DNA from: an uncultured Chloroflexia bacterium
Lineage (GTDB): Bacteria > Chloroflexota > Chloroflexia > QHBQ01 > JADMIH01
Direction of reading: 5' to 3'
Assembly: GCA_963797095.1 (NCBI GenBank)
Contig: CAWCNY010000006.1
Span: forward strand, 128,001-192,000
Length of the DNA stretch: 64,000 nt
In this document: positions 34,376 through 56,299 of the stretch, piece by piece
Layout of the letters: every line of letters starts with the position of its first letter
Numbering within the stretch: position 1 is the first letter of the stretch
Notes under the pieces: generated by a model
What the model saw: only the letters and a program-made list of their open reading frames with translations
Databases searched by the model: none
Told to the model about the DNA's origin: nothing
Position numbers and translations under genes: made by a program

Positions 34376-35707
34376 TTAGACCTTCTGTTTTACAATGGGT
34401 GCTCGACGCGATGCTATTTGCTTTGCCCAGTACAGCACCACCCATGCCATGAACAGTGCCACAGCGATCCCGGTCGCGGGAAGCGCTGCCAGCACTACCT
34501 CACCGGGAGACGCCACCTGCAACCCGATTCCCCAGTTGTTCACCAGACCGGCAGGTGCAGCCACACCGCCTGCCATAGCATCCACAGCAGGTTGTGCTAC
34601 CCATTCCACGGTCCATTGTGGGTAGATTGCGCTTATCCCCAGTAGAACCAGCGTTGCAGTTGCGACCGTTCCGGCTCTATCCTGCTCACCTCCTTTCGTT
34701 GCCCATTGTGCAAGACCTGCCACGAATATTATGATGGGTAGCCCCGCAACACCTGGCAAGCCATAACCTGCCGCCAGCGCCCCGTGGGAGAGCAGCCAAA
34801 GCCCTGCCAAACTCCCAGCCACCACTACAGCGCCAAAATATGAATTCCAATTAGGGTGGTGCCCCATTGCAGCGAGGACCGCAGCCAATGACAGCACCAG
34901 CACAGCCCCTAATCCTGCTACGGGGGATAGGGTTGCCAATCCGAAGGCCGCGACGCTCAGTCCAGCGAATACTTGCCCAGGAGTGGCCTTCCACCCACTG
35001 GTGCTTACGGTCACCCAGGCGATTGCGAGCAGTGCCACCATTCCCATTAGTGCCAGCGTCCATGTGCCCCAGGCATCCCAGCGACCACCGACGAGCATCT
35101 TCGACAATATGAAAGGCGCACCGGCTCCATACAGCGCCATCAAGCCTGGAGATTTGCCATCGCTCCACGCGGTTGAAAGCCCCAGCTGCACAAGAACTGC
35201 AATGCCTATGAGGAGGGTTGCTATCAGAGGCCATTCCCGCAGCGCCCCCCCCGCAGGAGGCGCGAATGGCCCTAGCCATCCGATTGCTGCCACCAACACG
35301 AGAAGCCCGGGTCCGTGCACCATGATGGCGAGCTTCAATCTCTCACGGCTGTTGGTTATTCCGGGGCCCAGCCATAATGCAAGCCCTGCTAGTTCCCAAC
35401 TCGCGACAAATATGAGAGGATCTCGCGAGTAAGCCATCCCTAGCAAGCCCAATAGTATCAAGCTGCTGAGTAGTCCCCGATCCTTCGCATCTGCACCCGA
35501 CCCAAAAATCAGGCCCGCCAGCGCCAGGCTCCAGATGACCCCGAATATGAGAGATAGGCCGTCAACCCTGAGCAGGATCGGCCCGCCATTCCAAAAGGCG
35601 ACATCTACAGCCTGGTTCCCTGCGATGAGAGGCAGGAAGAAGATCAACTGCAAGGCGGCTATCACCAGAATAATGCCGCTAATAACAAGAGGCACGACTT
35701 TTGTCAT
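34376..35707 (-). CDS. Polytopic membrane protein, degenerate antiporter-like (MrpD/NuoN/HyfB-like) subunit
   Basis: LRVDGLSLIF and FVASWELAGL motifs; about 14 hydrophobic segments. Confidence 0.65.
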   Translation of the reverse strand: MTKVVPLVISGIILVIAALQLIFFLPLIAGNQAVDVAFWNGGPILLRVDGLSLIFGVIWSLALAGLIFGSGADAKDRGLLSSLILLGLLGMAYSRDPLIFVASWELAGLALWLGPGITNSRERLKLAIMVHGPGLLVLVAAIGWLGPFAPPAGGALREWPLIATLLIGIAVLVQLGLSTAWSDGKSPGLMALYGAGAPFILSKMLVGGRWDAWGTWTLALMGMVALLAIAWVTVSTSGWKATPGQVFAGLSVAAFGLATLSPVAGLGAVLVLSLAAVLAAMGHHPNWNSYFGAVVVAGSLAGLWLLSHGALAAGYGLPGVAGLPIIIFVAGLAQWATKGGEQDRAGTVATATLVLLGISAIYPQWTVEWVAQPAVDAMAGGVAAPAGLVNNWGIGLQVASPGEVVLAALPATGIAVALFMAWVVLYWAKQIASRRAPIVKQKV

Positions 35708-39262: not shown

Positions 39263-39590
39263 GTTCTTACGCCCCTACGGGGCTATGGCATTTTCCTGGG
39301 CTTTACCGCAGGGCTTACGCCCTGGGCTACTCTCTTACGTCCCTACGGGACTAAATGGGATGGGGATGGCGTACGAGCAGGATACCATTAAGAGTGTCCG
39401 CACCTGGGCCATCTCGGTGGATTTATACGGCAGCATTGCCCCTTGTGGGTGCCCCTACTGTACCAAAGTACACCCCCAAAACGTGTCCCGTTTTGCCCCA
39501 CCAATGGCTCTTAGTTAATGAGGGTGCTAGTATGAGGTTGGTAGCGTAGACCCAGTCGCCTTCTGCCCCCACCAATGGCTCTTCGTTGAT
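39263..39590. repeat. REP-like mosaic (CCCTACGGG unit, GGGTGCCCCTAC arm, 48-bp dispersed repeat, duplicated GCCCCACCAATGGCTCTT)
   Basis: Matches to 8641-8730 and, in reverse complement, to 61421-61468. Confidence 0.75.
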
Positions 39591-39632: not shown

Positions 39633-40667
39633 CTAAGGGGTGAGGATGTCGGAAACGGTGACTACGCTGTAGCCCATTTCTTGTAGCTTGTCGAGGATGC
39701 GTGGCAAGGCTTCGGCTGACGCCTGTGAGCCGAAGTGCTGGAGAATGATCGCGCCGTCGAGGTTGAAATTGGGGGTGTTAGTCACTCTGTTGAAGATGAA
39801 ATCGGGTGTTTTCGGCTCACCCACCGAGTTGAGGGAATCAAGCGTCCAGTAGATCGACCTGTAGCCTTGCGCTACCGTTACGTTCAGCACATGGTTGTTG
39901 CGCGATCCGTATGGGGGTCTCCAGTAGGGCTTGGTGGTTACTCCGGTCAAGTTGTAGAGGATCCTTTCTGTGCGGGCCAACTCGTTTGTAAGTTCGTCGT
40001 CGGTGAGGGTGAGCGAATCGCGGTGTGAGTAGGTGTGGTTGGCGATCTCATGCCCATCCGCAACCGCTTGCTTTACACCCTCAGGGTACTGCTCCGCGAA
40101 CTTACCTGTGAAGAACATCGTAATATGTATGTTCCTCTGTCTTAGCGCGGCCAACACGGAGGGCATAGCGTCGTCTGGGCCGCCGGCATCGAAGGTAAGA
40201 GCAACACGCTTCTTCCCAGGATAGCCCCTGACAACCTCACTCCAACCGCCTGCGGGCGCAGGCTCTGCCGTGGGGGTTGGTGCGAGGGGCCTGGTCGCGG
40301 TCGGGGTCGCAATCTCTATCTCTTCTTCAGCGGTCGCAGTTGGTTCTACTAACGCCTGTGTGGGTTGGGGTGTGGCGACTGCCTCAGGTGTGTTGGTTGG
40401 CTCTTCGATGAAGGTTGGGGTTGGCGCAGGCGTATCGGTGGCGGTGGGCGTGGCGGTGCTTGTCGGCGTGGAGGTGGGTGGCAACTCGGTTGGCGATGGC
40501 GGGACTATGGTAGCCGTGTCTGTAAGGAGCGGCGTGTCGGTTGGGGTGGGGTTGGGCGTGGATGTGGGTGCAATTTCAGTAGGTGTGGGCAAGGCGCTCA
40601 CATTGCACCCCCAGGAAATAACCAGCAATCCGAACAGCAGCAAGACGATGGCGGCAACGCGTTTCAT
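39633..40667 (-). CDS. Polysaccharide deacetylase (CE4/NodB) lipoprotein with a long PT linker
   Basis: SWGC lipobox-like signal, PT repeats, ALTFDAG, NHTYSH, WRPPYG and IILQH. Confidence 0.92.
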   Translation of the reverse strand: MKRVAAIVLLLFGLLVISWGCNVSALPTPTEIAPTSTPNPTPTDTPLLTDTATIVPPSPTELPPTSTPTSTATPTATDTPAPTPTFIEEPTNTPEAVATPQPTQALVEPTATAEEEIEIATPTATRPLAPTPTAEPAPAGGWSEVVRGYPGKKRVALTFDAGGPDDAMPSVLAALRQRNIHITMFFTGKFAEQYPEGVKQAVADGHEIANHTYSHRDSLTLTDDELTNELARTERILYNLTGVTTKPYWRPPYGSRNNHVLNVTVAQGYRSIYWTLDSLNSVGEPKTPDFIFNRVTNTPNFNLDGAIILQHFGSQASAEALPRILDKLQEMGYSVVTVSDILTP

Positions 40668-40747
40668 GGCCGGATGATAGCACACCCTACCCTGTGGAAA
40701 GCCTGTTCATAAATGGCGGAAGCGGCCCAAAAGGACCGCTTCGTAAG

Positions 40748-40821
40748 TGGGTATGATAGGACTCGAACCTATGACCTTTCGGATGTGAACCGAACGCTCT
40801 AACCGACTGAGCTACACACCC
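40748..40821 (-). tRNA. tRNA-Val (anticodon CAC), CCA not encoded
   Basis: GGGTGTG acceptor stem, TAGCTCAGTCGGTTAGAGC D-arm, TTCGG-TTCACAT-CCGAA anticodon arm and GGTTCGAGTCC T-arm. Confidence 0.96.
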
Positions 40822-40949: not shown

Positions 40950-42128
40950 CTATTCGACGACTTCCAGATCAACTGTTGGGACGCGCATCTGCTGGCCGTT
41001 TGCCAGCTTCACATCGGCGGTAGGTGATACGACGCCCGACTGGGCCGAGCGCGGGCCCGCCGGTAGACCGGTGACCTGCGCCGTCTGCCCAAGGTAGCCC
41101 TGGGAAAGTAGCCTCACTATAGTACCCACCGCTAGCTTCGGCCCGATCTCCTCCGGCTTACGCACGGCTGTGGTGCGTGCCAGTGGGATGATTACTTCAG
41201 GTCGCGCCAGACCGCCGCGCAGGCGCGTCGTCCCGTCCACCGCGATTTCCTGCCCGTCGTAGCCAGCGATTGTTTCAAACACGCGCTTGCACATGGGCGC
41301 AAACCCGAAACCTTCCGTGATTATCAAGACAAAGTCGGGTGGCACGCCCAACTCGCCGCCGACTCCGGGCGGTGGAAAATCCCATCCCTTGCTTTCCCCC
41401 GAGGCCACGCCCATTCTCCAGGCTTCCAGCCCGCCGTAGCCCAGGAAGTTTGCAAGCTCGCCCGAACTCATACTGCCGACGATTGCGCCCCGTGCCCCAA
41501 GCTCGATCAACCGTCGTAGGGCGTCGGCGTTTACATCGCTGCCACCGAGCACGATGGAATAGGCAACCCTGGCATCGAGCCTATCGCGCGCGATAGGCTC
41601 GTCTTCGGCTGTTACCATGACCTTGAGGACACCGTGTTGCTCGCCGCCTACTCCAAATATGCCCCTCACCAGGTTGGCGGGTGTTTCCACGATAGCGCCG
41701 TAATGAGGTATCAGGTCGGTCACGATCCCTTTGAGGTGGGCGCGGACGCTGACAGGCTCGGCGGGTGTGGTTATCAGCCCTATTCCGGTGGCCGCGTCGA
41801 AGCCGGTGAAGGTGCCCGCTACAGGCGCCCGCGACACTCGCGACCCCATGCCCGCCCGTTGCGCCAATACTCCAGCCTGCTCAACCTGGGTTCCTGGGCT
41901 GACCAGAAGGCGTTTGGCGGTTGCCGCGGGGGACAGGTCCAGGTCGGCGGCGATGTCTACGCTTACTGGTTCGGACGCGAGGGTGCTCTGGGCAACGATA
42001 TCGCCCGGCTCGACGCGCGCACCCGCACGGACCAGCACTTCGCCGGGCACGGGGAGTCGCCTCTCCCGCCTTAGAAGAATGTTGGTGGCTATAGTGGGTT
42101 GGGGAATGGGGTAGTAGGGGCTGGCCAT
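40950..42128 (-). CDS. Hypothetical protein with barrel-sandwich-hybrid-like repeats and a C-terminal KOW/SH3-like region (GlmL-associated)
   Basis: RRLPVPGEVLVRAGARVEPGDIVA, RAPVAGT, GARGAIVGS and LIITEGFG. TAATG coupling to the upstream gene. Confidence 0.82.
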   Translation of the reverse strand: MASPYYPIPQPTIATNILLRRERRLPVPGEVLVRAGARVEPGDIVAQSTLASEPVSVDIAADLDLSPAATAKRLLVSPGTQVEQAGVLAQRAGMGSRVSRAPVAGTFTGFDAATGIGLITTPAEPVSVRAHLKGIVTDLIPHYGAIVETPANLVRGIFGVGGEQHGVLKVMVTAEDEPIARDRLDARVAYSIVLGGSDVNADALRRLIELGARGAIVGSMSSGELANFLGYGGLEAWRMGVASGESKGWDFPPPGVGGELGVPPDFVLIITEGFGFAPMCKRVFETIAGYDGQEIAVDGTTRLRGGLARPEVIIPLARTTAVRKPEEIGPKLAVGTIVRLLSQGYLGQTAQVTGLPAGPRSAQSGVVSPTADVKLANGQQMRVPTVDLEVVE

Positions 42129-44090
42129 TATTCTATCCCTTCGACCGGAGGAGCTTCGATACCGGGCATGGCGTCGAAGGCCGCCCACCATCGCCTGGCC
42201 TGGTCCATACGCGCCTCAGGGTTTTCGGGGAACTCCAGCGGCCTCCCTCTGGCGTCCACGATCAGGCCCACAAGCCCGCCTTTCACCTCTTGTCCCGCCT
42301 GGGTCTTGAGGGCTTTGCCCGGCTCCCCGCTCCCGACCCGGAAGCCTGACGACGGCTTGACCGTGAGGGGCGCACGCTCGTCCGGCCTTAAAGGGATCAC
42401 GCTGATGCTTCCGTATGGCACTTCTACCGTCTCAGCGTCGCCGGATTTGCGTTCAACAGTTACCGTGACGGCGGTGCGAGATTCATCCGGCAATCTGCCG
42501 TCTTCCTGCGATTCGGTATCGGCCTGCACCACCAGCGCTGTGCCGAGCCACACCAGGCAATCGCGGTCGAATATGTATGAGGCGGCGGCCAGATGATGGT
42601 GGGCCAGATTGCCCAGCGCGGGGAGCAGCAGCGTTGTGTCTACCGCCAGTTCGACGGACCCCAGACCCTCCGCGAATGGTTGGAGGGCATCGAGCATGAG
42701 AAGGGCGGCCTGTCCCGGCCGGGGGGTGTAACCTAACAAACCTCCTGTGCCGATCAAGAGATCGTAACGTGGAGCACCTTCGCCGTAACCGCGCTGCAAG
42801 TCTTCCTGGGCTGCGAGGAGGGCTTCGCGAGCCAGAGCGTGCTCGATAGCCAGGTCGCGGGCCGTCTGGGGGAGCAACTGTGGCCTCACCAGCTTGTTCA
42901 GCACCCAATCAAGTAGCTCGTCCTCTGCCATCGCGAAAGGAAGCCACCGCAGCACGTTCGCCAGACCCCGCTCGGCGAGGAGATTGCCCACGCCGTAAGC
43001 AAGGCCTGTGTCGCCCCGGATGATGGCCGAGTTCGCGTTCGGCGTTCGCCAGGTAGAGTGATGTAGCGCTTGCTCCCACGTCCGCGATCAATGTTTCGCG
43101 CCCGTAGTGGGCGTACAGATAGCGCGCGATGAGCCTGATGCTTTCGGCGGTGGGCACTACCGCCCCCTCGATCCAGCGCGATAGCACAGGGTATCCGGGT
43201 AGTTGCGGCACCCGCCGCTCGCGATAGAGTCCCGCCATCATCTCCTCGGCTGGACCTGTCTGTTCAATGGTCAGGCCGGGGCGCAGGTTAGCTACAGCTC
43301 GTACCTCAACCACCGATTTGAGCGTCTCGGATACTGCGTCCTGGGCCGCCGAATTGCCTGCGTAGATGGCGGTGGGCGTGCCTGGGGCTTGCTTGTTGAC
43401 CCTGGCCGCACGCTCGGCGCGGCTCGCTTGCTCACGTGAGGCCCCGGCCACTACTTTCGCCAAACGCACCAGTGGCGCTACCGGGCCGCCCTCGATGCCG
43501 CCTGCGATCAATACTACCTCCGGCGGCATGGCAAGCAGTTTGTCCATCTGCTCCTGTAGCCAGGCGGTGGATGCCTTGCTCAGAAGGGCATCGTCTTCGC
43601 TGGGTATTTCCTTTACGCCTTCGTCTAAAGTGATGTGTGCTACGATATGGGTGTATGCGCTCTCGGCTGCCTGTAACGCGCTAGGCTCCGAAATGTCGCT
43701 GCTGACAGCAGCAACTGCCACTCGCAAGGCGGGGGCCGCACTGGACGTGGCTATGAAGAGGTCCAGCCCGCTCCCATCCCTGCGCTGCGGCACTATGAGT
43801 CTGTTTTCTTCGGTCAGCTTTCGGCCTGTGATGCCCTCAAGCTCGCGCACTGCGTTGTAGACTCCGGCGGTTACGTCGTTGTAGGGAGCTTCGGCGGTTG
43901 TGAGGGCGGATGCCCGCGCCACGAAGCGGTATTCGTCGCCTACCACGTCGAACAGTGCGGCGCGCGTATTCAGTGAGCCGATGTCGACCGCCAGGATAGC
44001 GCCGACGGTCGCGACTGTGGGCGCCCCCTCCTGCTGTTCTGCTATCACAGCCTGCGGGCCGGTATTCTCCAACTTACCGATGTTGCTCAT
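42128..44090 (-). pseudogene. glmL: GlmL-like (glutamate mutase L) actin-fold ATPase, split by a frameshift at about 43030
   Basis: AVDIGSLNT (phosphate 1), IAGGIEGG, IADVGASAT (phosphate 2), IGTGGLL and IVDARGRPL. The frame changes between ...AEREL and AIIRGDTGLAYG. Possibly a sequencing indel. Confidence 0.82.
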
Positions 44091-44145
44091 AAATCACTCT
44101 TACTGGAGGTAAAGCTCAGGCAATTGTGCCTGGCTGTGAGGTCCT

Positions 44146-44814
44146 CTACAACTGCCACAATCTTTGTACTAATTCCACGAGGGACACCAGGCGCTCGATC
44201 AGAGCGGCATAGAAAGTGGTGGCGAGGGAGCCGAGTATAGCCCCGAAAGCGAGCACCAGCACCCATCGCCCCACTATCGAAAGCTGTTGTACAGGCATGG
44301 GCCTGGCGCCGTCGGCTCGTGCTCCGAAAGCGAAATACGACAAAGCGCACACTACCCCCGCCACCAAGACTATGTTACCCACCAGCGCCGCGAGAGAGGC
44401 AGGGTCGCTGCTTATGGTTACCAGACGCATGGTGTCGAGGGCCTGCGGTACGATTGCCCCGGCCAATGCGCCACCGAGCGCCAGCGATGCACCTACTACC
44501 ACTACGAGGTTGAGGCCAAAGGACGCAGGCCACGCGCCAGGATAGGCGATCCTTAAGAGCAGCAGCAGGCCGAGCGCCACGGGCACCATCCCAAGCCACC
44601 TGTCGGCGGCAGGGGTTCCCTCAGCGGGCACGATTATGCGCGCTATCTGTGGGGCGACCACCTGCGTCAGCACCACCAGCGATACGTATCCGACGGACAC
44701 GCCTACCAGCAGGCTTTGGGCTATCTTCCACAGGGGGTTCGCCCCTAGCAGATAGCTGAACACCATCAATGTAAGCAGCCCGGCTACAATTGCGCCGATC
44801 AGATTAGCATCCAT
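44146..44814 (-). CDS. Hypothetical 6-TM membrane protein (GlmL cluster)
   Basis: LTLMVFSYLLGANPLWK...VGVSVGY and GRWVLVLAFGA. Confidence 0.85.
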   Translation of the reverse strand: MDANLIGAIVAGLLTLMVFSYLLGANPLWKIAQSLLVGVSVGYVSLVVLTQVVAPQIARIIVPAEGTPAADRWLGMVPVALGLLLLLRIAYPGAWPASFGLNLVVVVGASLALGGALAGAIVPQALDTMRLVTISSDPASLAALVGNIVLVAGVVCALSYFAFGARADGARPMPVQQLSIVGRWVLVLAFGAILGSLATTFYAALIERLVSLVELVQRLWQL

Positions 44815-44829
44815 CGCTTTTGGGACCTA

Positions 44830-46728
44830 TCATCCTCTTCTCATTATTCTTCTCGCACCCTGTGCCAGAAATGCCGACACGATTACAAGTGCCGCCAGCA
44901 GCGCGGCTACCGATTGCGCGTTCAGGCGCGTGGTCAGCTCCACGGTCTTTGTAAGTACGCCACCGCCCAGGCCATTTTCCTCCAACTGCTGCATATAGGC
45001 ATATGCTCCGGTCGTGCCGCTCACAACTGCCTGCAACCCGGCCCCTGGCACCTGCAAATATGGCCTTGCCAATGGCTCAAGCCCTTGCGGGATAGCTGCC
45101 ACCACCGGCACGTTAGTGCGAGATGCCACCTGCTCGATCCAGTTTCTCATCTCGGCTTCCGTCCCGGCCAGGTCTACTATCAGCGCGAAGTCCTCCACTT
45201 TGTTGAGCGCACCACCAGCCGTCAACTGGTAGCTGTCGACCGGCCTGCTATTGATGTAATCGAGGGGAAGCAGCGCCTTGAAGTTGCCTACGAGTGTGCG
45301 CAGTGCTGCTTCGCTTCCGGGCAAGTAGCCGAGCACAAGGTAGTCTGTGCCGTACTCATATTCGTACCCCGGCTCAGTCTTGAGGGCATCTGTGACCTCT
45401 TGTGCGAAGCCCGGACCCTGGGGCACTGTGCTCACAGTCACGAATGAAAGATGCCGCCACATGATATGCTGCATGACAGCCTGCGACATAATCGACATCT
45501 CCGCCGACCTGCCGGCATCCCAGTCGTATACGACCAGCACCGGCCTGTCGAGCGGCACCGAATCGATAGCTTTATAGAATTCGATAGCCCCGGGTGCATT
45601 CACCGCAGGAGTGTTGCCGAAGGGCGGCCTGACTATCACAACTGCCAGCAGCGCGGCCAGAATCACGAGGTAGATCACTCCGTTGGGGAAGAGCCATTGC
45701 CTGACTTTGCTGCGACTTGCCTGCGCGCTCATGCGTGTTGCCTGGGCCGCCAGCGCCCGGCGGCTCCGCACCACGGGCATCGGGACCACGCGCCGTGTTG
45801 ATTCGGGCGCGGGAGGTTGCAGTAGTTGAGCCAGCGTCTCTACAGAACCGGGCCTGGGTGCCTTCACAGGGATGTTGCGCGAGGCTATCCCGGCCATATC
45901 TTCTTCGAGGGTGAAATTAGCAGGTGGGGCTGTGACGGTCCGGCCTTGTACGGGTATGGCTGCCGGTTGTGTTGGTGCGTCCTGTGTTATCGCGCCTGAG
46001 CCTTCGCCGCCCATATTGCGCACGAAATCGGGCAGTTGTTCGCTGGCGTCAGCCTCGGCGGGAGGAGCGAAAGGCTCTATCCCTTCGATACCCAGGTCGG
46101 CCAGTTCCGTGCTCCGCAATTCCTGCGAAGGCACCGATTGCAGCGTTTCCTGCACGGTTACATTGCCGAGCCAGGGTGGCAGGCCCGGCGGTGCATTATC
46201 GGCCTCTTCGTCTTCGGGCGTTTCGCCTGCCTCTGTCCCACCTTCTGTGGAGCTTGCCGCCTCTTCGTCTGCGCCTTTGTGCGCCCAGGGCATAATATGC
46301 GCAAGCTCCTCAGGCTCGTACCCTCCCTCGGGTGCTATAGGGCTGGACGAAGGCTCAAGTATGCTTACCACCCAGTTGGGCGGTGGGGCATCAGGGGCCT
46401 CGGCTTCTTTACCAGGTTCTGCGGCTTCCGCCGCATCTTCTGTGGAGCCTGGAGATGGAGAGGCGGCCTCAGATTCTTCTGCCAATTCAGTCCCCGTATT
46501 TTCGGTCTTACCGGCGATTTCAGGTTGGGCCGCAGCGTTAACTTTCTCAGGGCCAAGTCCGGTGGTTGGCAATACAGCTTTTTCATTGACCGCCTGGAGC
46601 CAGGGGAGGTCCATAAACTCATGGTCGTGTTCTTCGCCTTCCTGGCGAGGCAAGGCAGCGCCGCACCGGGCGCAAAATCGCCCTGTGTTGCGGTTAGTAG
46701 CCCCACAATTTTGACAGATTACATCCAT
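44830..46728 (-). CDS. Zinc ribbon, acidic disordered linker and TM-anchored alpha/beta domain protein (GlmL cluster)
   Basis: CQNC...CARC, repeated (L/P)PW motifs in an E/P/A-rich linker, TM GVIYLVILAALL, VYDWDAG, LVLGYLPG, WIEQV and a C-terminal TM. Confidence 0.85.
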   Translation of the reverse strand: MDVICQNCGATNRNTGRFCARCGAALPRQEGEEHDHEFMDLPWLQAVNEKAVLPTTGLGPEKVNAAAQPEIAGKTENTGTELAEESEAASPSPGSTEDAAEAAEPGKEAEAPDAPPPNWVVSILEPSSSPIAPEGGYEPEELAHIMPWAHKGADEEAASSTEGGTEAGETPEDEEADNAPPGLPPWLGNVTVQETLQSVPSQELRSTELADLGIEGIEPFAPPAEADASEQLPDFVRNMGGEGSGAITQDAPTQPAAIPVQGRTVTAPPANFTLEEDMAGIASRNIPVKAPRPGSVETLAQLLQPPAPESTRRVVPMPVVRSRRALAAQATRMSAQASRSKVRQWLFPNGVIYLVILAALLAVVIVRPPFGNTPAVNAPGAIEFYKAIDSVPLDRPVLVVYDWDAGRSAEMSIMSQAVMQHIMWRHLSFVTVSTVPQGPGFAQEVTDALKTEPGYEYEYGTDYLVLGYLPGSEAALRTLVGNFKALLPLDYINSRPVDSYQLTAGGALNKVEDFALIVDLAGTEAEMRNWIEQVASRTNVPVVAAIPQGLEPLARPYLQVPGAGLQAVVSGTTGAYAYMQQLEENGLGGGVLTKTVELTTRLNAQSVAALLAALVIVSAFLAQGARRIMRRG

Positions 46729-46733
46729 AAGGC

Positions 46734-46768
46734 GTGACGAGTGACGAGTGACGAGTGACGAGTGACGA
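46734..46768. repeat. Heptamer array GTGACGA x5
   Basis: Read directly; intergenic within the operon. Confidence 0.85.
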
Positions 46769-46809
46769 GTGATTATCGCTTACTGCTTATTTCTGGTGTT
46801 GATCGTTTG

Positions 46810-47448
46810 TCATTCCAGGTATGGCCTGTCGAAGCCGAGCAGTATGCGCAGGCTCAACCCGATTGCGCCGAAGGCTACTCCCAGGATGATAGCACGTATG
46901 CCCGCTAGCACCGGGTAGTCCAGCAGCCAATCTTTGATGCTTACCAGTACATCGAGCGGTGGCGCGGCTGCGAAAGGTGCCTGGCCGAGCACCACCACCA
47001 CTGCTACCAGCAACAGGACTGTGGCCTCCCGGCTCTTGAGCCGCATCGACCGGAACAAGGCGGTCGTCAGGAAGAACGCGAGCAAACTGAACAGTGCCGC
47101 ACCAAGGGGCTGGTATATCCACTTGAATATCCAGGCCACAGTGTCGGTTCCTGGGCTGCCTCCGATCAATCCCAGCGCCAGTACTGCTATCGCGCTTCCC
47201 ACCAGGATCAAGCTATAGAGCCAATCGGTTTCGCGCTTCAAGACGCGACCTATATGCACCTTCATGAGGTTGCCCAATCCGACCAGCAAGGCGAATCCAA
47301 CCAGCACCGCCACCCATTGTGCCAGCATCCCGCCCCAATCGGAGAATGTGCCCCGTGTGAAGAAGCCCACGATACTGATCACCCCGGCGACATACGCCAG
47401 GCCCAGGTTGAGTATCAGTATTGCGGTGGATGTGATGCGGTTTGACAT
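46810..47448 (-). CDS. Hypothetical 6-TM membrane protein (GlmL cluster)
   Basis: YQPLGAALFSLLAFF...RSMRL...LGQAP...RAIILGVAFGAIGLSLRILLG. Confidence 0.85.
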   Translation of the reverse strand: MSNRITSTAILILNLGLAYVAGVISIVGFFTRGTFSDWGGMLAQWVAVLVGFALLVGLGNLMKVHIGRVLKRETDWLYSLILVGSAIAVLALGLIGGSPGTDTVAWIFKWIYQPLGAALFSLLAFFLTTALFRSMRLKSREATVLLLVAVVVVLGQAPFAAAPPLDVLVSIKDWLLDYPVLAGIRAIILGVAFGAIGLSLRILLGFDRPYLE

Positions 47449-47499
47449 GGATGGTGATAGGTGATAGGTGATACGTGAACAAGTGATCACGTTTACGGG

Positions 47500-48330
47500 T
47501 TACGGGATAATACTTACAACCTCATTCCAGTTGATGCCTAGCAGGTTCCCGATTATGAACCCCAGCACTATCAAGATAATAAGCACCCAGCGCAGGCCAT
47601 CCTGGGCCAGTAAGGAGGCTGTGTGTGTGGTCCTGCGTTCAAGGTAGGCCCCTGAGGCGAATATCTCTTCGCCGATCAGGGTGTGGTCGGCGCTAATGCT
47701 GATCAGGGCTAAAGCCTGGTGGTCTGATGCTCCAATGATCTGTTGCGCGCCGTTTCTGCGCTGTACTTCGGTCAGGATCAATACTTCAGGCCCAAACTGC
47801 CCCACCATTACGGCGCTCGAAATCTTCTGCCCCTCGACCACCTCGGTGGCTCCCGCCACGTAGGCCAGCGGGTCGGCATGTGTCAGGAAGCGTGCTTCGC
47901 TACCCTCGTTCTCTGCTGACCACCCGGACCTGCTTGCCCCGCGTCTGAGCGCATTGTCTGTCAGCGCGTAAGCCACTGCATCATTGGTGGTGGCCTGCAC
48001 AGGAGCGCCCGTGATCGCACTCACCCGCGCCATAAACTCGACCACCGCCATGCCTGCCAGGGTGGCCGCACTCCCCACACCCTGAGTGCCCACGCTTCCC
48101 GTCCCAGGAGATATGTGCACCGCTCGACCTGTCTCAGCCGATAAGGCCAATCCTTCATTGGCTGCTTCGTACCCCGCGATTGGGCGGAGCGTGTAGGCTG
48201 ATGCTGTCTTTGTTGTTGCTTTCTGGCCCCATCCCGACCGCCACAGGTATATCAAGAAGAGCACCAGGAAGAGCACCAACCCGCCCAGCATGACAAGTAA
48301 GGCGCTCCCGTAAGCAGGCTCGACGCTCAT
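47500..48330 (-). CDS. DUF6754-like membrane-anchored protein (GlmL cluster)
   Basis: N-terminal TM, LRPIAG...AETGRAVH..PG, TLAG, HTLIGEEIFASGAYL, QDGLR and a C-terminal TM. Family name recalled from these motifs, not searched. Confidence 0.8.
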   Translation of the reverse strand: MSVEPAYGSALLVMLGGLVLFLVLFLIYLWRSGWGQKATTKTASAYTLRPIAGYEAANEGLALSAETGRAVHISPGTGSVGTQGVGSAATLAGMAVVEFMARVSAITGAPVQATTNDAVAYALTDNALRRGASRSGWSAENEGSEARFLTHADPLAYVAGATEVVEGQKISSAVMVGQFGPEVLILTEVQRRNGAQQIIGASDHQALALISISADHTLIGEEIFASGAYLERRTTHTASLLAQDGLRWVLIILIVLGFIIGNLLGINWNEVVSIIP

Positions 48331-48689
48331 CGCTCTTTGTCCTCCGCAGCCATTTCGGACTGATCCGAAAAGTCGCTCAGGTAGGCCTCCAGCTTGCCAA
48401 GACCATCATCACTCTCCAACAGCCGGGCTACGCTGCCGATAGAAGTTGTGCTCCTTCGTGATAATGGCCCCAGCGCACCCAGGAACGGCTCCAGCGCCCA
48501 AGCGAATTGCCCAGCTATCCAGTGCAAAGGTTTCAAGGCATCAAGCGCTACCCGCGCCGTCCCTCCCATGCCTGCGCGGTTTATAGCTTGCGCAAGCCTG
48601 TATGCTTCACTGTTAGGTTGTTCTCCTGATATGGAGCGTGTGGGCTTTTCGTTGCCTGGAGTGGCTGCCAAGAGTTCCCGTCCTTTCAT
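48327..48689 (-). CDS. Hypothetical protein (first gene of the GlmL cluster)
   Basis: 120 aa with LDALKPL..IAGQ..W..EP; ATGA overlap with the next gene. Confidence 0.72.
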   Translation of the reverse strand: MKGRELLAATPGNEKPTRSISGEQPNSEAYRLAQAINRAGMGGTARVALDALKPLHWIAGQFAWALEPFLGALGPLSRRSTTSIGSVARLLESDDGLGKLEAYLSDFSDQSEMAAEDKER

Positions 48690-48839
48690 GGGCTGGGGAG
48701 TGGAGTCACATTATAGCTATGCGCAGCTACTATGGTCAAGAAATCACATTAAGTTCCTCGAATGTGGAAAACAATATTAAATTTTAAGAAGGACGACGGC
48801 GCGTGCGCCGTCGTCCTTGTTGTTGCCAGGTCGCGGAGA

Positions 48840-51800
48840 CTATCGTTCGGTGGTAGCACAACCTGGGAAGAATGTGTTGGCCACTATCTTGGAGGCTTGC
48901 CCTCTCGTCGCATTGGCTCCTGGCCTGAAGTATGGCAGGTTGGCAGGGCCTACACATGGCTCTCCCACTCCTCCACATGCGTACCCGTTCATGATGCCCC
49001 GGTCCGTCAGCCTCCATATCCAGTCGTAGAAGGTTGACCCTGGCAGTACGTCCTGGAACTGCTGGTCTCCTACCGGGTCCGAGTACCCCGCTGCCTCTGA
49101 CACTATCTTGGACAGTTGTCCTCTCGTCACGTTGGCATTCGGTCTGAAGTACGGCAGGTTCCCTGGGCCTACACATGGCTCTCCTGGTCCTCCACATGGG
49201 TACCCTGCGATGATGTCGCGGCTGGCCAGCCTCCCTATGAAGTCGTAGAAGGTTGAACCGAGTGGCACATCCTCGAAGCGCTGGGGACCTGGGTCATCAT
49301 TGTAGCCAGCTGAGTTGGACACTATCTTGGACAGTTGTCCTCTCGTCACGTTGTTGTTGGGGCGGAAGCATGGGTTGCCGCTCTCGCACCCTGAGGTGTA
49401 ACCGTTGATGATGCCCCTACATGCCATGCAGGTGATGTAGTCGTAGAAGGTAGAGCCTGGGGGCACGTCAGTGAAGGTGATGGAGCAAGCTGTGGGGGTG
49501 GCGGTTGGTGGCACAGGTGTGTTGGTAGGCTCAGTAATGGGAGTATTGGTAGGCTCAGTAATGGGAGTATTGGTAGGCTCAGTAATGGGAGTATCGGTGG
49601 GAGGCACAGGCGTGTCGGTGGGTGGTACAGGTGTGTCGGTGGGGGTAGCTGTAGGCTCGGCACATGGTGTGATCGATGGAGGAGTGCCCATCGTGAAGCG
49701 GAAAGCGGTGTTGCTGCCCAACCTGCCCGGCTGGTTGAAGGAAAGCTGGATCGCAGATGTGCCGTTGTCGTCCTCGATACCTGCGGTTGAGCTATAGCCA
49801 TATCCAAACGCGGCATCCAGGTCTTCATAGACTATGGTGATACGATTGGTGGTTTCTTCAAGCTGTACCTCGAACGTGATTGGATCGTTTAGGCTCCCGC
49901 CTCCGTTCGTACCAGCTACGTCTCGCCACTCGATGACGAACGTACAATTCGGTGCGCTGCCTGATACCCCTGTGTAGACGTCACCATACGCGATGGCACG
50001 CGGGTCCACAGCCAGGTCGTCCCAATATGGATAGATGGCATTGTTGGGGTAGTTGTAATTGGAGGTGTGGGTAGTAGGGCCGGGGTTGGGTATTCCGGTG
50101 TTGGCCCACATCCTGGCGAAAGTGAAATCCTTAAACGTCAGGAAGCCATTGGTGCTGACGTTGAGGGTCGTATATGTGCCCGTGTAGTAGTTGAAGGCGA
50201 ATGGCAGCGTTACCGCCGAGTATCCATCTTCGTAATCATCGAACGTCAGAGCGGTTGTGCCTGCTATCCAGTTGGGCGTTGGCATATCTACGACGTATGT
50301 GCTGTCATAAGCCGGGCCGAATGTGAAGTCATGTGTCATAGCCGCGCCGACATTTACGACATCTACAATTGGCTGGTAACCTGCGCCCGCATCGGCTGTG
50401 AACGTGTAGGTTCCGGCGGGTAGGTTCACGCTGTACATTCCGCTAACCGGGTTGTTTTGCACAACCAACGATGCAGGCGGGTCGATAGTCACCGTGCCGG
50501 ACAAAGGCGCGCAAGAGCCGTTCTCGAAGAGATAACCTGATACCGCAAAGGTCGGTAGAGGTGTGAGGCTGACGTTGAGCACCGGGCTTGTATCGGTGAG
50601 CCAACTCTGCCCGCTGAGATTGGCGGTCTGGTATCCGAATGCCGATACGGTTACATCATAGGTACCTGCCAGCACAGTCATGCTGTAAGCGCCGCTGGCG
50701 TGCGTCACTACCGAGTAGGTATCGCCGTCGCTTGTTCGCTGAGCGGTAACATGAGCTCCCTCGATTGCGGAGCCATCGCTCACGGTGCCGCTGACATGCG
50801 GGCCGTGTACCGCCATTTCGATAGCGGTATCAGCCTGCACAAGACCCCAACCATAGTTGTTGTTAGGGCGTGCGCCCCAGGATGCCTGGAAGTAGGCGGT
50901 GCGGGTCAGAATGCCCATTACGTCTGTGTACGTAAGCGAAGGGTTGGCCGACAGGACGAGAGCCATCACGCCTGATACGTGAGGCGTTGCCATAGATGTG
51001 CCTGAGATCGAACCGTAGGTGTTGCCGGGGAAGCTGGAGCGCACGTTTACGCCTGGTGCGTTTACGTCCGGCTTGACAACTCCTCCCCAGCACGAAGGTC
51101 CACGGCTGGAGAAACTGGCGATGGTCAGGTTCGAGGCGTTAATAGCGCCGACGCCGATCAGGAATGGATATCCACCAGGGGAGCCGACTGTTCCGGCTGA
51201 GGGCCCCGCGTTGCCGTTGGCGAACGACGGCATAATACCTGCGTCGATCCAGGCTTGCATGATGAGCCAGCTATCGGTGTTCCAACATTCGTTGTCGCCC
51301 CATGAGTTAGTGACGATATTGGGCCGGAGGTCGGGGCGGCGGTTCTCTCCATTGAGATCCCAGGGCGCAAGCATAAAGTCTTCCGCAGGGGTGATCTCTT
51401 CGTTACCCGACGAGCCGCCACCAATGCCGGTAGGGAAGACCTTGGCGGCGATCCACTTGGCGTGCGGTGCTACACCAATCTGATTGGTCAGGGTGGGATC
51501 TTCGCCCAACACCGTGCCCATTGTATGCGTACCGTGTCCATTGTCATCGTATGGTACAGGTGAAGGAGTGGCATCTGCGCGGGCATCCCACCAGTTGTAA
51601 TTGTGGTCATAGGAGCCATCGCCCAGGTAGCCCCTGTACTGGCGGAATAGGGCTTCGTGTGTATAGTCAACCCCGGTATCGATACTTCCTACGACTATAC
51701 CCTGGCCGAAGTAACCCTCGGCCCATGCCTGGGGTGCATGTACCGTCTGCACGCCTAATTCGACGGTGTCGGGAGAGTTGGAATCGACCACACTGGACGT

Positions 51801-52427
51801 ATCAACGGACCCGGCCTCCATGCTCGATGCCGTGTCATCCATCAGATAGTAGCGGTGATCGGCTTCAATGTACGCCACATCGTTCAGGCGGCCCAAAGCG
51901 CGCGCTGCCGCTTCGTTACCGTGGACGAAAATGGCGTTGATAATGGTGAACTGGCTCACTTTGCCGTTGATATTGCCCAATCCCTGCTGGCGCGCCACCT
52001 CTTGCATTACACGCGGCTGGGTGGCCTGTGCTGTGCGCTGAAGCAGATCGAGTACGTAGCTACCTTTGTCGTTCCAGCTATTGATGCTGTTAGCAGTGTC
52101 GGCTTGAGCTTTCAGATAGACCATAAAGCCCACAGTGCTGTTGCCCGCAGAATCAAGCTGTCCTCTGAGCTTGTTACTGATTTTGGTGGCCGGATCGAAG
52201 CTGATCTCCGGCTGCGTGAGCCACCAGTTACCGCGCAATGGTATACCGGCCAGCGCGGGATCTGCCAGTGCGGGGTCTGACTGAGTTGTACCGGCAGTGC
52301 TGCTGCTTGCGGCTGCTGTGCCGGTAGGATAGGCGGCCTGTGCGTTCCAGGGCCGCCAGGCGAGTGCGGCGAGGGCAAACAACGCGATGCCCAGGCCGAT
52401 CATTAGGTAGATGCGCCTTCTTTGCAT
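48840..52427 (-). CDS. S8 subtilisin-like serine peptidase (bacillopeptidase F-like) with beta-sandwich domains, a PT linker and SLH repeats
   Basis: Catalytic motifs IDTG, HGTHTMG and GTSMATPH; signal peptide; C-terminal FxDV...TRGQ SLH repeats. Confidence 0.95.
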   Translation of the reverse strand: MQRRRIYLMIGLGIALFALAALAWRPWNAQAAYPTGTAAASSSTAGTTQSDPALADPALAGIPLRGNWWLTQPEISFDPATKISNKLRGQLDSAGNSTVGFMVYLKAQADTANSINSWNDKGSYVLDLLQRTAQATQPRVMQEVARQQGLGNINGKVSQFTIINAIFVHGNEAAARALGRLNDVAYIEADHRYYLMDDTASSMEAGSVDTSSVVDSNSPDTVELGVQTVHAPQAWAEGYFGQGIVVGSIDTGVDYTHEALFRQYRGYLGDGSYDHNYNWWDARADATPSPVPYDDNGHGTHTMGTVLGEDPTLTNQIGVAPHAKWIAAKVFPTGIGGGSSGNEEITPAEDFMLAPWDLNGENRRPDLRPNIVTNSWGDNECWNTDSWLIMQAWIDAGIMPSFANGNAGPSAGTVGSPGGYPFLIGVGAINASNLTIASFSSRGPSCWGGVVKPDVNAPGVNVRSSFPGNTYGSISGTSMATPHVSGVMALVLSANPSLTYTDVMGILTRTAYFQASWGARPNNNYGWGLVQADTAIEMAVHGPHVSGTVSDGSAIEGAHVTAQRTSDGDTYSVVTHASGAYSMTVLAGTYDVTVSAFGYQTANLSGQSWLTDTSPVLNVSLTPLPTFAVSGYLFENGSCAPLSGTVTIDPPASLVVQNNPVSGMYSVNLPAGTYTFTADAGAGYQPIVDVVNVGAAMTHDFTFGPAYDSTYVVDMPTPNWIAGTTALTFDDYEDGYSAVTLPFAFNYYTGTYTTLNVSTNGFLTFKDFTFARMWANTGIPNPGPTTHTSNYNYPNNAIYPYWDDLAVDPRAIAYGDVYTGVSGSAPNCTFVIEWRDVAGTNGGGSLNDPITFEVQLEETTNRITIVYEDLDAAFGYGYSSTAGIEDDNGTSAIQLSFNQPGRLGSNTAFRFTMGTPPSITPCAEPTATPTDTPVPPTDTPVPPTDTPITEPTNTPITEPTNTPITEPTNTPVPPTATPTACSITFTDVPPGSTFYDYITCMACRGIINGYTSGCESGNPCFRPNNNVTRGQLSKIVSNSAGYNDDPGPQRFEDVPLGSTFYDFIGRLASRDIIAGYPCGGPGEPCVGPGNLPYFRPNANVTRGQLSKIVSEAAGYSDPVGDQQFQDVLPGSTFYDWIWRLTDRGIMNGYACGGVGEPCVGPANLPYFRPGANATRGQASKIVANTFFPGCATTER

Positions 52428-52598
52428 TTATTTCTCCTTCTCTCTAAAGGACAATGGGTTTTTGTGCCCAGAGGCAATGGGCGAGGCGAATAGAATTATA
52501 GCAGGGCACTCGTAGTGAGTCAACCCCGCTATAAATTGAATTTATACTAAACTGCCAGATCTGTAGAAAAATATTTTAGGTTGGCATGGATAGTAATT

Positions 52599-55500
52599 TT
52601 ACGGGTTGCACCCTGGGAAGAACGTATTACTAACGATCTTGCTTGTCTGCCCGCGCGTCACTGTGCCGTTTGGCCTGAAATATGGCCTGTCATCGGGCGA
52701 TACGCAAGGCTCGCCCGGCCCACCGCATGGGTAGCCGCTCATCACGCTTCTGCTGACCAGTCTCTCCGTGAAAGTGTAGAAAGTGGCGCCGGGCGGCACA
52801 TCCTCGAAGGTCTGGCCGCTTACCGTTTCATTGAAGTTCGCGGCATTGCTGACGATCTTGGTTGTTTGCCCTCTTGTAGAGGAGCTGTTTGGCCTGAAAT
52901 ATGGCCTGTCATCGGGCGATACGCAAGGCTCGCCCGGCCCACCGCATGGGTAGCCGCTCATCACGCTTCTGCTGACCAGTCTCTCCGTGAAAGTGTAGAA
53001 AGTGGCGCCGGGCGGCACATCCTCGAAGGTTTGACCTGATACAGAGTCGTTGAAGCCAGCCGCCTCGGATACAATTTTGGTGAGTTGCCCCCTGGTTACA
53101 GGATTATTCGGCCTGAAATAAGGAAGGTTGTCCGGTGCGATGCATGGCTCGCCCGGCCCACCACAGGGGTAGCCCGATAGTATGCCCTGGCACGCAAGGC
53201 AGCGCACGAAGGTATAGAAGGTGCTGCCAGCAGGCACGTCCTGGAACCCGATTGGGCAGGAGCCGGGCGTGGATGTGGCTCGCGGCGTGTTCGTCGCCGT
53301 CACGGGCGGGGTCGCAGTGGGCGTTGGAGGTTGCAGCCCGCCGCTGCATACTATGGCTTCGTTGCTTTCCACATAGCTGCCATTCCACCCGCCAATCGCC
53401 AGCAGCGAATAGCTGTTCGGGCTGTAGGTGGCTGCCAGCGTGCGCCGCGCAGTATTCAAGCTGGATATAGGCTCCCAGCTATCGGTCAGCGGGTTGTATC
53501 TTTCAGCCGTGTTGGTGTAGTCCAGATAGCCGCCGCCTACCGCGTAGAGGAAGCCTCCGCACCCCGGCGTGCCGGTATCCAGGCCTACCACGGCCACTCC
53601 GCCCCTCGGGAGGTTCATCGGCTGAACTGTGCTCCAGCTATTGGTGGCAGGGTTGTATGCTTCCACTGTCGAGAGGTCGGTAAAGCCTCCAGGGATCCCT
53701 CCAGCCGCGTATATCAGCCCGTCCAGAGCGGCGGCACCCAGGTACACGCGTGCGGTGGGCATCGGCGCTTTGGTCTGCCAGCGGCTACCAGCGGGCCGCG
53801 TCGGGTCATATTCGTAGACGGTATTCTTCGCCTGCAAAGTGTCGTCCGAGCCTCCGATCACATAGAGTTTGCTATTGTACACGGCCACTCCCGCCCCGAA
53901 GCGTGGGGCGGGCAATGGGTCGCTGGTGAGCGTCTCTACGCGGTTTTGCAGGGGGTAGTATACCTGCAACAGGTTCTTAGTGGAGGCGGTATCGCCGCTA
54001 TAGCCGCCGGGGATGTAGATGGCGCTGCCGATCACCCCGGCCCCTACATTGCTCACGCCGGTGTTCAAGGAAGCACGCTGCGTCCAGGTGTTAGCCAGCG
54101 GGTCGTACTCCATAATTGGCATGTTGGTGTTGCCGTTGTTGTACTCGCCACCGAGCGCGTATATGCGCCCGTTGGGCACGAACGCCACCGCCGCCTCGCG
54201 GCTGCGCGGCAACAGCATGTCGGCCTTACGAACCCACACTCCTGCCGTGGTGGTCATGACGGTCTGCCCGAAGAACTGTCCAGGGCTGGGTAGCTGCCCG
54301 GATGCGTTCAAGGTAAGCACATCGCTGGCTCCCAGCGTCGCCCCCGAGGGCACGAACACGGTTACTGTAACAGGAGTGGATGCGTCGGGTGAGAGATTGC
54401 TGGTTACGGCCGGGGTTACGCTGGCGGACCAATCGACACCTTCCAGTGACATATCGAAATAGTTATCTTGCCCGCTCTTATTTATCAGGCTTGTTGTGAA
54501 GGTTACCGGGCTGCCGTAATCTCCGGCCCTCGTTTGTCCCGGCGGTGCAAAATCGACCCCTTCCGTGCTTACCGTGGTGGTTATCAAGGCGGTATCTGTG
54601 AAGGTACCGGGCGTGGGCAGGTCGGAGCTTACATCGACGCGTGCCGTATCCACTTCACCGAGGGGAGTGCCCGGCGGTATTTGCACCTGCACGGTTATGT
54701 CGGTTTTGCCACCGCTCGGTATCAAGCCTGTATTCGCGGGGCTGACGGTGGTGGTCCACACTCCGGAAGCCGCCGACAGCGCGAAGGAATTGTTTATGCC
54801 TGTGGCGTTCACCACAGATTCCGTGTATACGACGCTAGCGCCGGGCGCTCCGCCTCCCGCCCTGGTGCCGGGTTGCAAGAATACATCCTGCTGCACCCTG
54901 TAGCGTATCGCCCGCGACGGCGACAGGTCATCCACATAGCAGAGATAGGCAAGCCCTACACTACCATCAGCATTCTGAATACCTACCACGCCCTTCGATC
55001 CTGCGACGCCCGTCCCGTTGAGGGTCTGGTATTGGAAGACAATGTCGCCGTTTTCGTAGATAAGTGTTTCGATGGTGGCGCGCACGTTCGGGTTGCCGTA
55101 CTCGTAGACATTACGCCACTCGACCACGTAGATACGGTTGGGGGCAGTGCCGATTATGTCTGTGTAGACTCCGCCTTGTACAGTGTCGGTAATGAGGGGC
55201 ACGATGAAATCGTACCAGAGGGGGGCCACCATGGCTTTCGGCACGTATTGACTGATAGAGGGCACACATTCAAAACTCTTCCCCGGCCAGTAGTCGTTTG
55301 GCAACCCGAAATGTACATTGCCGTTAGTTGAAACGTGTGCCTGAGTATAATTCACGCCATAGAAGTTGAACACAAACGGGAGCGTGTAAGTCACGACGCC
55401 GTCATCATAGGGATAGGTGGGATCGCCGGTGCGCACCAGGGTCCATGCGCCGTCGCCTATACGCTGGGTGGCCTCAACCCAGTTGTAGACCGGCCCTCCA

Positions 55501-55778: not shown

Positions 55779-56299
55779 GCCCATATTGACCTGCCCATAT
55801 GCAAACACAGGCTTGTCATCATGAGGAAAGTCGCGGCGTGTGCTGGATCGCATATCAAGGGTCACTCCTCTAGTGGCTGGCCGGGCAAAGGGAGGCTTGC
55901 TCGCGGTATCTAATTGTCGCGAAAGGTATGCTGCTTTGTCAAATGGACGGAGGACGAAAGACAATGGACAGTTATCGGAATGTCCTTCTAACGCTTTAAC
56001 GTTTCAGTTTTACATTCATTACCATTTCTTGCTTCATGCTGGAGTACGGCAATTAGCCCAGCGTTATTTACGTAGCACATTACGTAATTCGGGTGATGGT
56101 TCCCTGGAAGTAAGCCGTTATACTGGCGCGTACCGAAATGTACCGGTGGGATGTAGACCAAATACCTATTTACCCCTCCCACCATCCGCCTTTACAGTGA
56201 GGTAGACGCCCGGCGCGGGCTGGGCGCGGCGCGTTTTGCGCTTCTATATCAAATTTGCATCAAATTTGCGCTTCTATATCAAATGGGAAGATAATGATC

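Follow-up and report, generated by a model that had tools for sequence, protein, structure and literature searches.

A conserved seven-gene operon of Chloroflexota that may encode a membrane assembly served by a MutL-family ATPase

We analyzed a 64,000-nucleotide stretch of DNA from an uncultured Chloroflexia bacterium (assembly GCA_963797095.1, contig CAWCNY010000006.1, positions 128,001 to 192,000 of the forward strand; hereafter the window). In this window, an initial annotation had singled out seven co-oriented genes at 40950-48689, built around an ATPase that resembles GlmL (MutL), the accessory protein of glutamate mutase. The genes were found as described, on the minus strand, and constitute a well-supported and apparently undescribed Chloroflexota system. 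They encode a small protein (g1), a DUF6754 protein (g2), two polytopic membrane proteins (g3 and g5), a protein with a zinc ribbon and a membrane-anchored domain (g4), the ATPase (g6), and a soluble protein (g7). It is very probable that these proteins make up a functional multi-protein unit that is independent of glutamate mutase. We are evenly balanced on the fuller reading, in which the operon encodes a conserved membrane-embedded assembly served by a cytoplasmic actin/Hsp70-fold ATPase, with a transporter or an envelope-assembly machine as the favored identities.

Conservation of the operon across Chloroflexota

One genome per GTDB species was scanned with a 14-sequence DUF6754 alignment, which matched at least 603 stretches of DNA, of which at least 581 were confirmed. 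We read the best 80 of these at least 581 loci by calling their open reading frames (ORFs) and searching them with iterated profiles of each window protein. A complete set of seven genes, in identical order and all on one strand, was present in 53 of the 80 loci. Most proteins of these loci are only 20-45% identical to those of the window, and because the order recurs despite such divergence, the arrangement is, on this comparison, far beyond chance. The initial annotation had named a gene order not conserved in other genomes as a ground for giving up its proposal; the neighborhood survey found the order conserved, so this ground falls away.

Among the loci in which fewer genes were found, 24 have a contig or locus end no more than 190 bp from the last gene found. 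One locus (L024) carries an unrecognized ORF of 973 amino acids (aa) in the g4 slot and then ends, and another (L077) has 198 N across the g3/g4 slot. The sole true lack among the 80 loci is that of L068, titled Ktedonobacterales, where g1-g4 are followed by 7.7 kb without g5-g7. The loci are titled Chloroflexota in 77 of 80 cases (Chloroflexia, Anaerolineae, Ardenticatenales, Ktedonobacterales, and Ca. Aquidulcis), and the remaining three titles are Acidobacteriota, Methanosarcinales, and Bacillota. Locus L067 is near-identical, in layout and in an eighth gene described below, to loci titled Anaerolineaceae or Anaerolineales, and is therefore probably mis-binned. DUF6754 itself was matched by 1477 representative clusters (E ≤ 1e-3) among 1.84 billion representatives, and no DUF6754 was found in a plasmid collection.

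The layout of the genes (Table 1) bears out the tight coupling that had been described. The g1 stop and g2 start share an ATGA overlap of 4 nucleotides (nt), the g6 stop and g7 start share a TAATG overlap of 1 nt, and the remaining gaps are, in order, 9, 81, 15, and 55 nt. A promoter-like site lies about 20 nt upstream of the g1 start. It is a consensus match only, one of three such sites found in the region where 2.7 were expected from shuffled sequence; its position and quality nevertheless fit the start of an operon. With this site before g1 and a tRNA gene after g7, the boundaries of the operon are plausible. Six of the genes, g1-g5 and g7, are intact in the window.

The MutL-family ATPase and its distance from glutamate mutase

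The description of g6 as an actin-fold ATPase held for its family, not for its gene. The protein belongs to Pfam MutL (PF13941; ASKHA, the actin/Hsp70 fold), with two halves that score 156.4 and 50.3 bits (cut-off 27), and the intact orthologue P0002 (652 aa) scores 211.3 bits (E 2.9e-62) over profile positions 1-450. The window, however, holds no single open gene, a frameshift that the initial annotation had missed. Profile positions 1-263 fall in an ORF at 42909-44090 (393 aa) and positions 296-450 in an ORF at 42128-42991 (287 aa), which are in different frames, and the last ~40 residues of the 393-aa ORF are out of frame. P0002 is the closest intact orthologue, 89% identical, and tblastn places the frame switch at window positions 43032-43034: residues 1-353 align in one frame (88.7% over 353 aa) and residues 353-649 in the next (82.2% over 298 aa), with no gap at the switch. 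One extra base near 43032-43034 is the simplest reading of this split. A programmed frameshift was ruled out, since orthologues are read in a single frame and the intact form is the rule among them (57 of 73 non-self matches to the N-terminal ORF are 617-687 aa long).

The frameshift in this genome would stem from one of two sources, an isolated error of the assembly or an inactivation that happened very recently. If it is real, the operon would be a decaying remnant whose system no longer works in the source genome, which we consider a serious possibility, though the lesser one. The site of the extra base is not a long homopolymer, and the protein record of the source genome (P0001) is itself the truncated 393-aa form. 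A crude screen of the window for other GC3-rich overlapping frames turned up no further gene that was clearly split, and indels are therefore not rife in the assembly. Against decay, both halves of g6 remain close to the intact orthologue and the other six genes are undamaged. Split ORFs are also frequent in the same operon at four loci on long contigs (L041, L061, L062, and L064), which we take to be long-read assemblies; as the contig studied here measures 1.06 Mb, an assembly indel is plausible.

As a family, g6 looks active. In an alignment of 48 sequences, the ASKHA motif positions are invariant or nearly so, comprising phosphate-1 (D36-x-G38...T42), G197-G198...G202, phosphate-2 (D337-x-G339), and the adenosine motif (G449). 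The protein had been described without an extra C-terminal domain, which overlooked a domain of ~140 aa whose stretch G-G-x-V-G-L-I-I-D-A-R-G-R-P-L is the best conserved of the whole protein, with an invariant DARGRP motif. Profile comparisons of this domain with g7, g2, g1, and the g4 ectodomain gave probabilities of at most 0.5%. Searches of PDB sequences gave no match for P0002 alone and two chance-level matches for the g6 profile.

The claim that the ATPase has no glutamate mutase partner was upheld by several lines of evidence. The N-terminal g6 ORF scores 62 bits against the NCBIfam GlmL equivalog NF040745 (cut-off 475; C-terminal ORF, 14.8 bits), 58.5 bits against the ornithine Or-4 model (cut-off 600), and 36.3 bits against TIGR01319 (cut-off 204). 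When the plasmid collection was searched with g6, the single match was a true glmL, that of Prevotella nigrescens, which is 22% identical and lies in the context glmS-glmL-glmE-methylaspartate ammonia-lyase (MAL). The GlmS, GlmE, and MAL proteins of Prevotella gave no tblastn match (E ≤ 0.01) in the window and the 80 loci, a total of 1.225 Mb that takes in ~10 kb around the loci and not the rest of the genomes; GlmL matched g6 in 50 sources of the same DNA. As had been stated, glmS, glmE, and B12 genes are absent from the window: no B12-binding or glutamate mutase domain was found in its 43 other ORFs of at least 100 aa, nor any cobalamin riboswitch. A glutamate mutase domain was likewise absent from the 18 commonest flank clusters and 93 further flank ORFs, and Met_asp_mut_E was found in none of the 93 unclustered flank ORFs of 350-620 aa.

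Together, these results support that the operon is unrelated to glutamate mutase and that g6 is not a glutamate mutase accessory. NCBI records label g6 relatives (P0004, P0007, P0012, and others) 'glutamate mutase L'. Since no glutamate mutase lies near any of the 80 loci, this name is probably misleading for the g6 subfamily, and it could yield false predictions of glutamate fermentation.

The membrane proteins and the soluble subunit g7

The small protein g1 has no Pfam or NCBIfam match. Its alignment shows a core of ~85 aa, in which a hydrophobic hairpin (P-A-x3-L-E-x2-K-P-L ... Q-P-x-L) is followed by an L-L-E-D helix. In 78 of the 80 loci, g2 is immediately preceded by a g1 homologue; the other two loci begin at g2.

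The assignment of g2 to DUF6754 (PF20539) was secure, at 111.2 bits (cut-off 27; E 6.3e-32), and the same family was matched by all 50 aligned g2 relatives. A hydrophobic segment stands at each end of the protein, as had been noted (residues 3-35 and 238-269), with a domain of ~200 aa between them. Residues R49, E66, G76, G177, and D244 are invariant, and H72, E182, G220-E221, and Q243 nearly so. Basic residues follow the first transmembrane (TM) segment and precede the second, flanking the central domain, and some relatives are fused so that a signal peptide and an FN3-like ectodomain stand ahead of the TM segment. Because of these two features, the DUF6754 domain is predicted to lie inside the cell.

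These residues bear on an alternative in which g6 is a chaperone-type reactivase of a membrane enzyme, modelled on the presumed reactivation of glutamate mutase by GlmL/MutL. The catalyst would be the DUF6754 domain or the membrane core, and g6, aided by g7, would spend ATP on reloading or repairing a cofactor or metal site within it. The one relevant text found in the searched literature gives MutL/GlmL an assumed chaperone role for glutamate mutase (PMC4682846). The invariant and near-invariant Glu, His, and Asp residues of DUF6754 could make up a metal or active site, and a weak contact between g6 and g2 is predicted (see below). On the other hand, scans of g2-g5 revealed neither a motif nor a family that binds cofactors, and the window has no cobalamin riboswitch. 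Nor was there an operon-linked B12-binding domain, the sole one being that of an opposite-strand radical-SAM gene in the atypical locus L068. We therefore regard a reactivase as improbable.

Both g3 and g5 show the six hydrophobic peaks of the six-TM proteins that had been called; the true start of g3 is probably an internal ATG. In g3, N74, H79, R147, R199, R215, and R222 are invariant and the protein carries a C-terminal D-R-P-Y. Neither protein fell into a family of Pfam, NCBIfam, or PDB sequences, including when 42 members of each were scanned singly, and profile searches of PDB sequences gave no match for g3 and one, at chance level, for g5. The two were also considered as paralogues and rejected (hhalign probability 0.2%).

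The plan proposed for g4, with a zinc ribbon, a linker, and a TM-anchored domain, was confirmed, the ribbon resting on weak matches below the curated cut-offs (Table 1). In the family members read (73 rows), g4 has one or two CxxC...CxxC ribbons, a linker of ~170 to more than 2300 aa, and a constant TM-domain-TM module; E67, Q190, and Y214 (alignment numbering) are invariant. From this topology, the ~230-aa domain should face outward. It has no family match in Pfam, and its profile found one PDB sequence, at chance level; comparisons with the DUF6754 domain, g3, g5, and g7 gave probabilities of 0.1-3.1%. Giant forms of g4 occur at two loci (L075:11369-19354, 2660 aa; L080:11410-18606, 2394 aa). 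Their extra length precedes the constant module, and the portion of sequence that was read showed no CxxC...CxxC pattern.

The soluble protein g7 most likely begins at 42128 rather than 42191, which gives the 392-aa protein of record P0075 from the same window. The barrel-sandwich-hybrid region that had been noted was placed at aa ~13-170 and the putative KOW/SH3-like one at ~311-392, on either side of an alpha/beta region at ~180-300. An AF2 model from a 70-sequence alignment (pLDDT 88.4, pTM 0.84; pLDDT 34.4 without the alignment) is rich in beta structure toward the N-terminus and alpha/beta in the middle, and it closes with a small beta domain. Weak Pfam matches among the 70 relatives were to RnfC_N (38), Biotin_lipoyl (19), KOW (15; best E 7.9e-5), and NQRA_N (10). 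A PDB profile search gave weak matches to the KOW domains of Spt5, L24, and NusG (E 1.2e-5 to 0.6), and the Foldseek matches of the model to eS4, Spt5, and NusG had E ≥ 3e-3. Relatives of g7 at 30-35% identity are named WOR-3 and Armatimonadota, and Planctomycetota and Fidelibacterota are where Atlas clusters close to g7 occur most often.

A proposed membrane machine, its surroundings, and known systems

The fixed gene order, the stop/start overlaps, and the matching topologies argue for a single assembly. We predicted the complex of g6 (P0002 residues 33-652) with g2 in three runs with three controls. The score was 0.38 (runs 0.36, 0.38, and 0.42) as compared with 0.01 for the best control, which is weak support; the runs agreed in at least 82% of contacts and the partner pLDDT was at least 69. 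Of 157 solved complexes, 116 attained the mark that this prediction passed, as did 2 of 215 mismatched pairs, and those passing it with a score of at most 0.60 were only 18 of the 157 solved complexes plus both mismatches. Added to the strong prior from synteny, this score lends modest support to docking of g6 on the DUF6754 domain. That the ATPase powers or regulates the membrane proteins, as put forward in the initial annotation, is something that we infer, with weak backing from this prediction. We rate a physical action of the ATPase on the membrane proteins as somewhat probable; transport or envelope assembly as the output is a tentative proposal, as is polymer export, and none of the domains found favors one of the three.

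In the assembly that we envisage, g2 and g4, with two TM segments each, and g3 and g5, with six each, would form a 16-helix membrane core. The parts predicted to be cytoplasmic are g1, the DUF6754 domain, the g4 ribbon, g6, and g7, and the single outer domain would be that of g4. The conserved acidic DUF6754 domain, possibly with the g4 zinc ribbon on its acidic tether, would recruit g6, while g7 may act as a peripheral adaptor, as the N-terminal domains of RnfC and NqrA do on their membrane complexes. When a protein of the actin/Hsp70 fold binds ATP, its two lobes close and its affinity for partners changes, and on this ground g6 is proposed as a nucleotide switch on the core. ATP binding and hydrolysis would switch the conformation of the core, which would drive or gate a membrane or envelope process, with a read-out on the outside through the alpha/beta ectodomain of g4.

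Several points weigh against this assembly. No domain in g1-g7 names a substrate or a chemistry. The DUF6754 profile of g2 found no PDB relatives, and nothing in Pfam, NCBIfam, or PDB sequences matched g1, g3, g5, or the g4 ectodomain. The ESM Atlas gave no lead, with no usable match for g2 and only unnamed or weakly named clusters for g7, and Foldseek with the model of g7, the sole subunit modelled alone, gave no PDB match at E ≤ 1e-3. Since the g6-g2 support is weak and our own alignments were used, the calibration of the score holds only roughly. Co-transcription is predicted from gene layout, and protein contacts from the g6-g2 complex prediction. Metagenome-assembled genomes account for 79 of the 80 loci by record title, with no cultured species named among the protein matches, and as the loci read are the best 80 of at least 581, the synteny figure covers Chloroflexota-like copies only. 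With g6 broken in the window, the system may moreover be dead here.

A morphogenetic or cytoskeleton-linked complex, like MreB-MreC-MreD-RodZ or FtsA with its membrane partners, would use similar parts to another end. In such a complex, g6 would be placed on the membrane by g4 and the small polytopic proteins and would organize cell-wall or septum synthesis rather than transport. An actin-fold ATPase shares one operon with bitopic and polytopic partners, and the g4 plan is kept while its linker varies about ten-fold, as expected for a tether. Envelope genes are also close by. The window holds SLH proteins and a polysaccharide deacetylase, and a sortase-signal protein comes after g7 in 25 loci; in addition, FtsK is upstream in 5 loci and a phosphoglucomutase-family gene downstream in 9. 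However, flanking genes differ between lineages, g6 belongs to MutL and not to MreB, FtsA, or PilM, and Pfam scans revealed no homology of g3/g5 to MreD or of g4 to RodZ. MutL relatives are not known to form polymers, those known being accessory proteins of enzymes. We hold a morphogenetic role to be rather improbable.

A conflict (anti-phage) or signaling module, as opposed to a housekeeping machine, is very improbable. The zinc ribbon and the hypervariable g4 would suit it, as would a STAND NTPase with a DNA-binding domain downstream in 21 loci, CHAT-domain genes in two loci, and HerA/NurA upstream in ~10. Set against these, PADLOC-DB 2.0 gave no match for the operon at E ≤ 0.01 (g1-g5, P0002, and P0075 as queries), and the flanks are ordinary metabolic and envelope genes that vary with lineage. 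The operon is single-copy, in fixed order across several classes of one phylum, and its identity falls smoothly from ~87% to 20-30%, a pattern that looks like vertical inheritance.

We return to the membrane-embedded assembly served by g6. It is doubtful, though worth stating, that it represents an undescribed class of membrane machine for Chloroflexota envelope housekeeping, with a MutL-type motor or switch in place of an ABC, P-loop, or AAA+ protein. In a bolder version, the machine might insert, position, or tension LPxTG membrane-to-wall tethers at loci of the Anaerolineae type. Soils, sediments, hot springs, and wastewater plants harbor abundant Chloroflexota, whose envelope biology is poorly known. 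For five of the seven operon proteins there is no family, or at most a DUF label, and a unit fixed across several classes of the phylum likely does something basic. If the ATPase does drive the membrane core, this would be a new kind of energy coupling for membrane machines. The g6 DARGRP domain, the acidic DUF6754 domain, and the g4 ectodomain are concrete targets. The searched literature, beyond whose reach lie most subscription journals, held no paper that mentions DUF6754, PF13941, or the operon, in line with the earlier statement that no function of such a complex has been described.

At 25 loci of the Anaerolineae type, an eighth gene follows g7 on the same strand, at a median gap of 60 nt (L013:16797-17261, L043:12079-12636, L048:11850-12404, and 22 more). 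It encodes a small protein with an acidic N-terminus that carries a conserved N-R-T-F, one TM segment, and a Pro/Thr-rich stretch; 23 of the 25 end in LPx[T/S/A]G, a hydrophobic segment, and an Arg-rich tail, a sortase-type sorting signal. This gene is not found beside the operon of the window. A possible sortase substrate is encoded at a distance of ~5 kb by a 443-aa ORF without a Pfam match, which closes with LPATG, a hydrophobic stretch, and basic residues. The STAND-type NTPase, fused to Trans_reg_C, occurs in 28 copies at the 21 loci, mostly downstream and on the same strand (e.g., L053:9331-10791), and may be a regulator. Other features of the window are listed in Table 1. The SecA ORF has its DEAD domain from residue 438 and a wing/scaffold match stretched across residues 987-1430, which points to an insertion and, in addition, to either a long N-terminal extension or a wrongly called start.

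Table 1. Positions of the operon, its parts, and other features in the window
Feature	Window position	Strand	Description
Seven-gene operon g1-g7	40950-48689	-	All genes co-oriented
Promoter-like site	48710..48739	-	TTGACC-18-TATAAT; consensus 11/12
g1	48327..48689	-	120 aa; conserved core with hydrophobic helical hairpin
g2	47500..48330	-	276 aa; DUF6754
g3	46810..47490	-	At most 226 aa; polytopic
g4	44830..46728	-	632 aa; zinc ribbon, acidic linker, TM-domain-TM
g4 zinc ribbon	46648-46722	-	aa 3-27; weak Pfam matches, E 1e-4 to 3e-3, all below curated cut-offs
g4 linker		-	aa 30-340; 311 aa, Ala/Glu/Pro-rich, net charge -36
g4 first TM segment	45610-45699	-	aa 344-373
g4 alpha/beta domain	44926-45609	-	aa 374-601; ~230 aa, predicted extracytoplasmic
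g4 C-terminal TM segment	44845-44925	-	aa 602-628
g5	44146..44814	-	222 aa; polytopic
g6	42128..44090	-	MutL-family ATPase gene, split by frameshift
g7	40950..42128	-	392 aa; soluble
tRNA gene	40748-40821		3' of g7
SLH-domain run	48840-57412		Just upstream of operon; S8 protease (1195 aa), Kelch-repeat protein (1121 aa), CAP-domain protein
Polysaccharide deacetylase	39633-40685		Secreted; just downstream of operon
443-aa ORF	34376-35707	-	Ends in LPATG signal
smpB-adjoining tmRNA gene	32403-32749	-
smpB	32795-33301	-
SecA ORF	1852-6477	-	1541 aa
Acido-Lenti-1 RNA motifs (3)	8684-8729, 29891-29936, 39307-39352	+	Above Rfam gathering score

Compared with known systems, g6 shares with GlmL its Pfam family and its actin/Hsp70-fold nucleotide motifs. 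It differs in length (617-687 aa vs. 461 aa), in its added DARGRP domain, and in gene context, lying between the gene of a six-TM protein and g7 and never beside glmS or glmE in the 80 loci. The RNF and NQR complexes offer a second likeness: RnfC and NqrA are encoded with the six-TM proteins RnfA/E and NqrD/E, and the soluble g7, whose relatives weakly match the RnfC_N and NQRA_N families, is encoded with two six-TM proteins of ~220 aa. In contrast, g3 and g5 have no Rnf-Nqr match (42 members each, E ≤ 1) and are not paralogues, g3, g5, and g7 have no invariant cysteines, no Fe-S, flavin, or redox domain was found in g1-g7, and the 50 best Foldseek rows for g7 include no RnfC or NqrA. An RNF/NQR-type ion-pumping redox complex was accordingly rejected, for want of paired homologous six-TM subunits and of flavin or Fe-S subunits. 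An ECF/CbiMNQO-type transporter was rejected as well. Such systems frequently carry a cobalamin riboswitch, which the window lacks, no CbiM, CbiQ, or EcfT Pfam match was found, and the ATPase has the actin fold and not that of an ABC protein.

By analogy, the operon resembles MreB/RodZ/MreC/MreD, FtsA, and PilM/PilN/O systems, in which an actin-fold ATPase is encoded with bitopic and small polytopic proteins. RodZ consists of a cytoplasmic binding domain, a long linker, a TM segment, and an outer domain, a plan like that of g4. The difference lies in the proteins themselves, as no partner shows sequence or profile similarity to those systems and g6 is of the MutL branch. Within DUF6754, finally, g2 is a clear member, and what is new here is its fixed partnership with six other genes.

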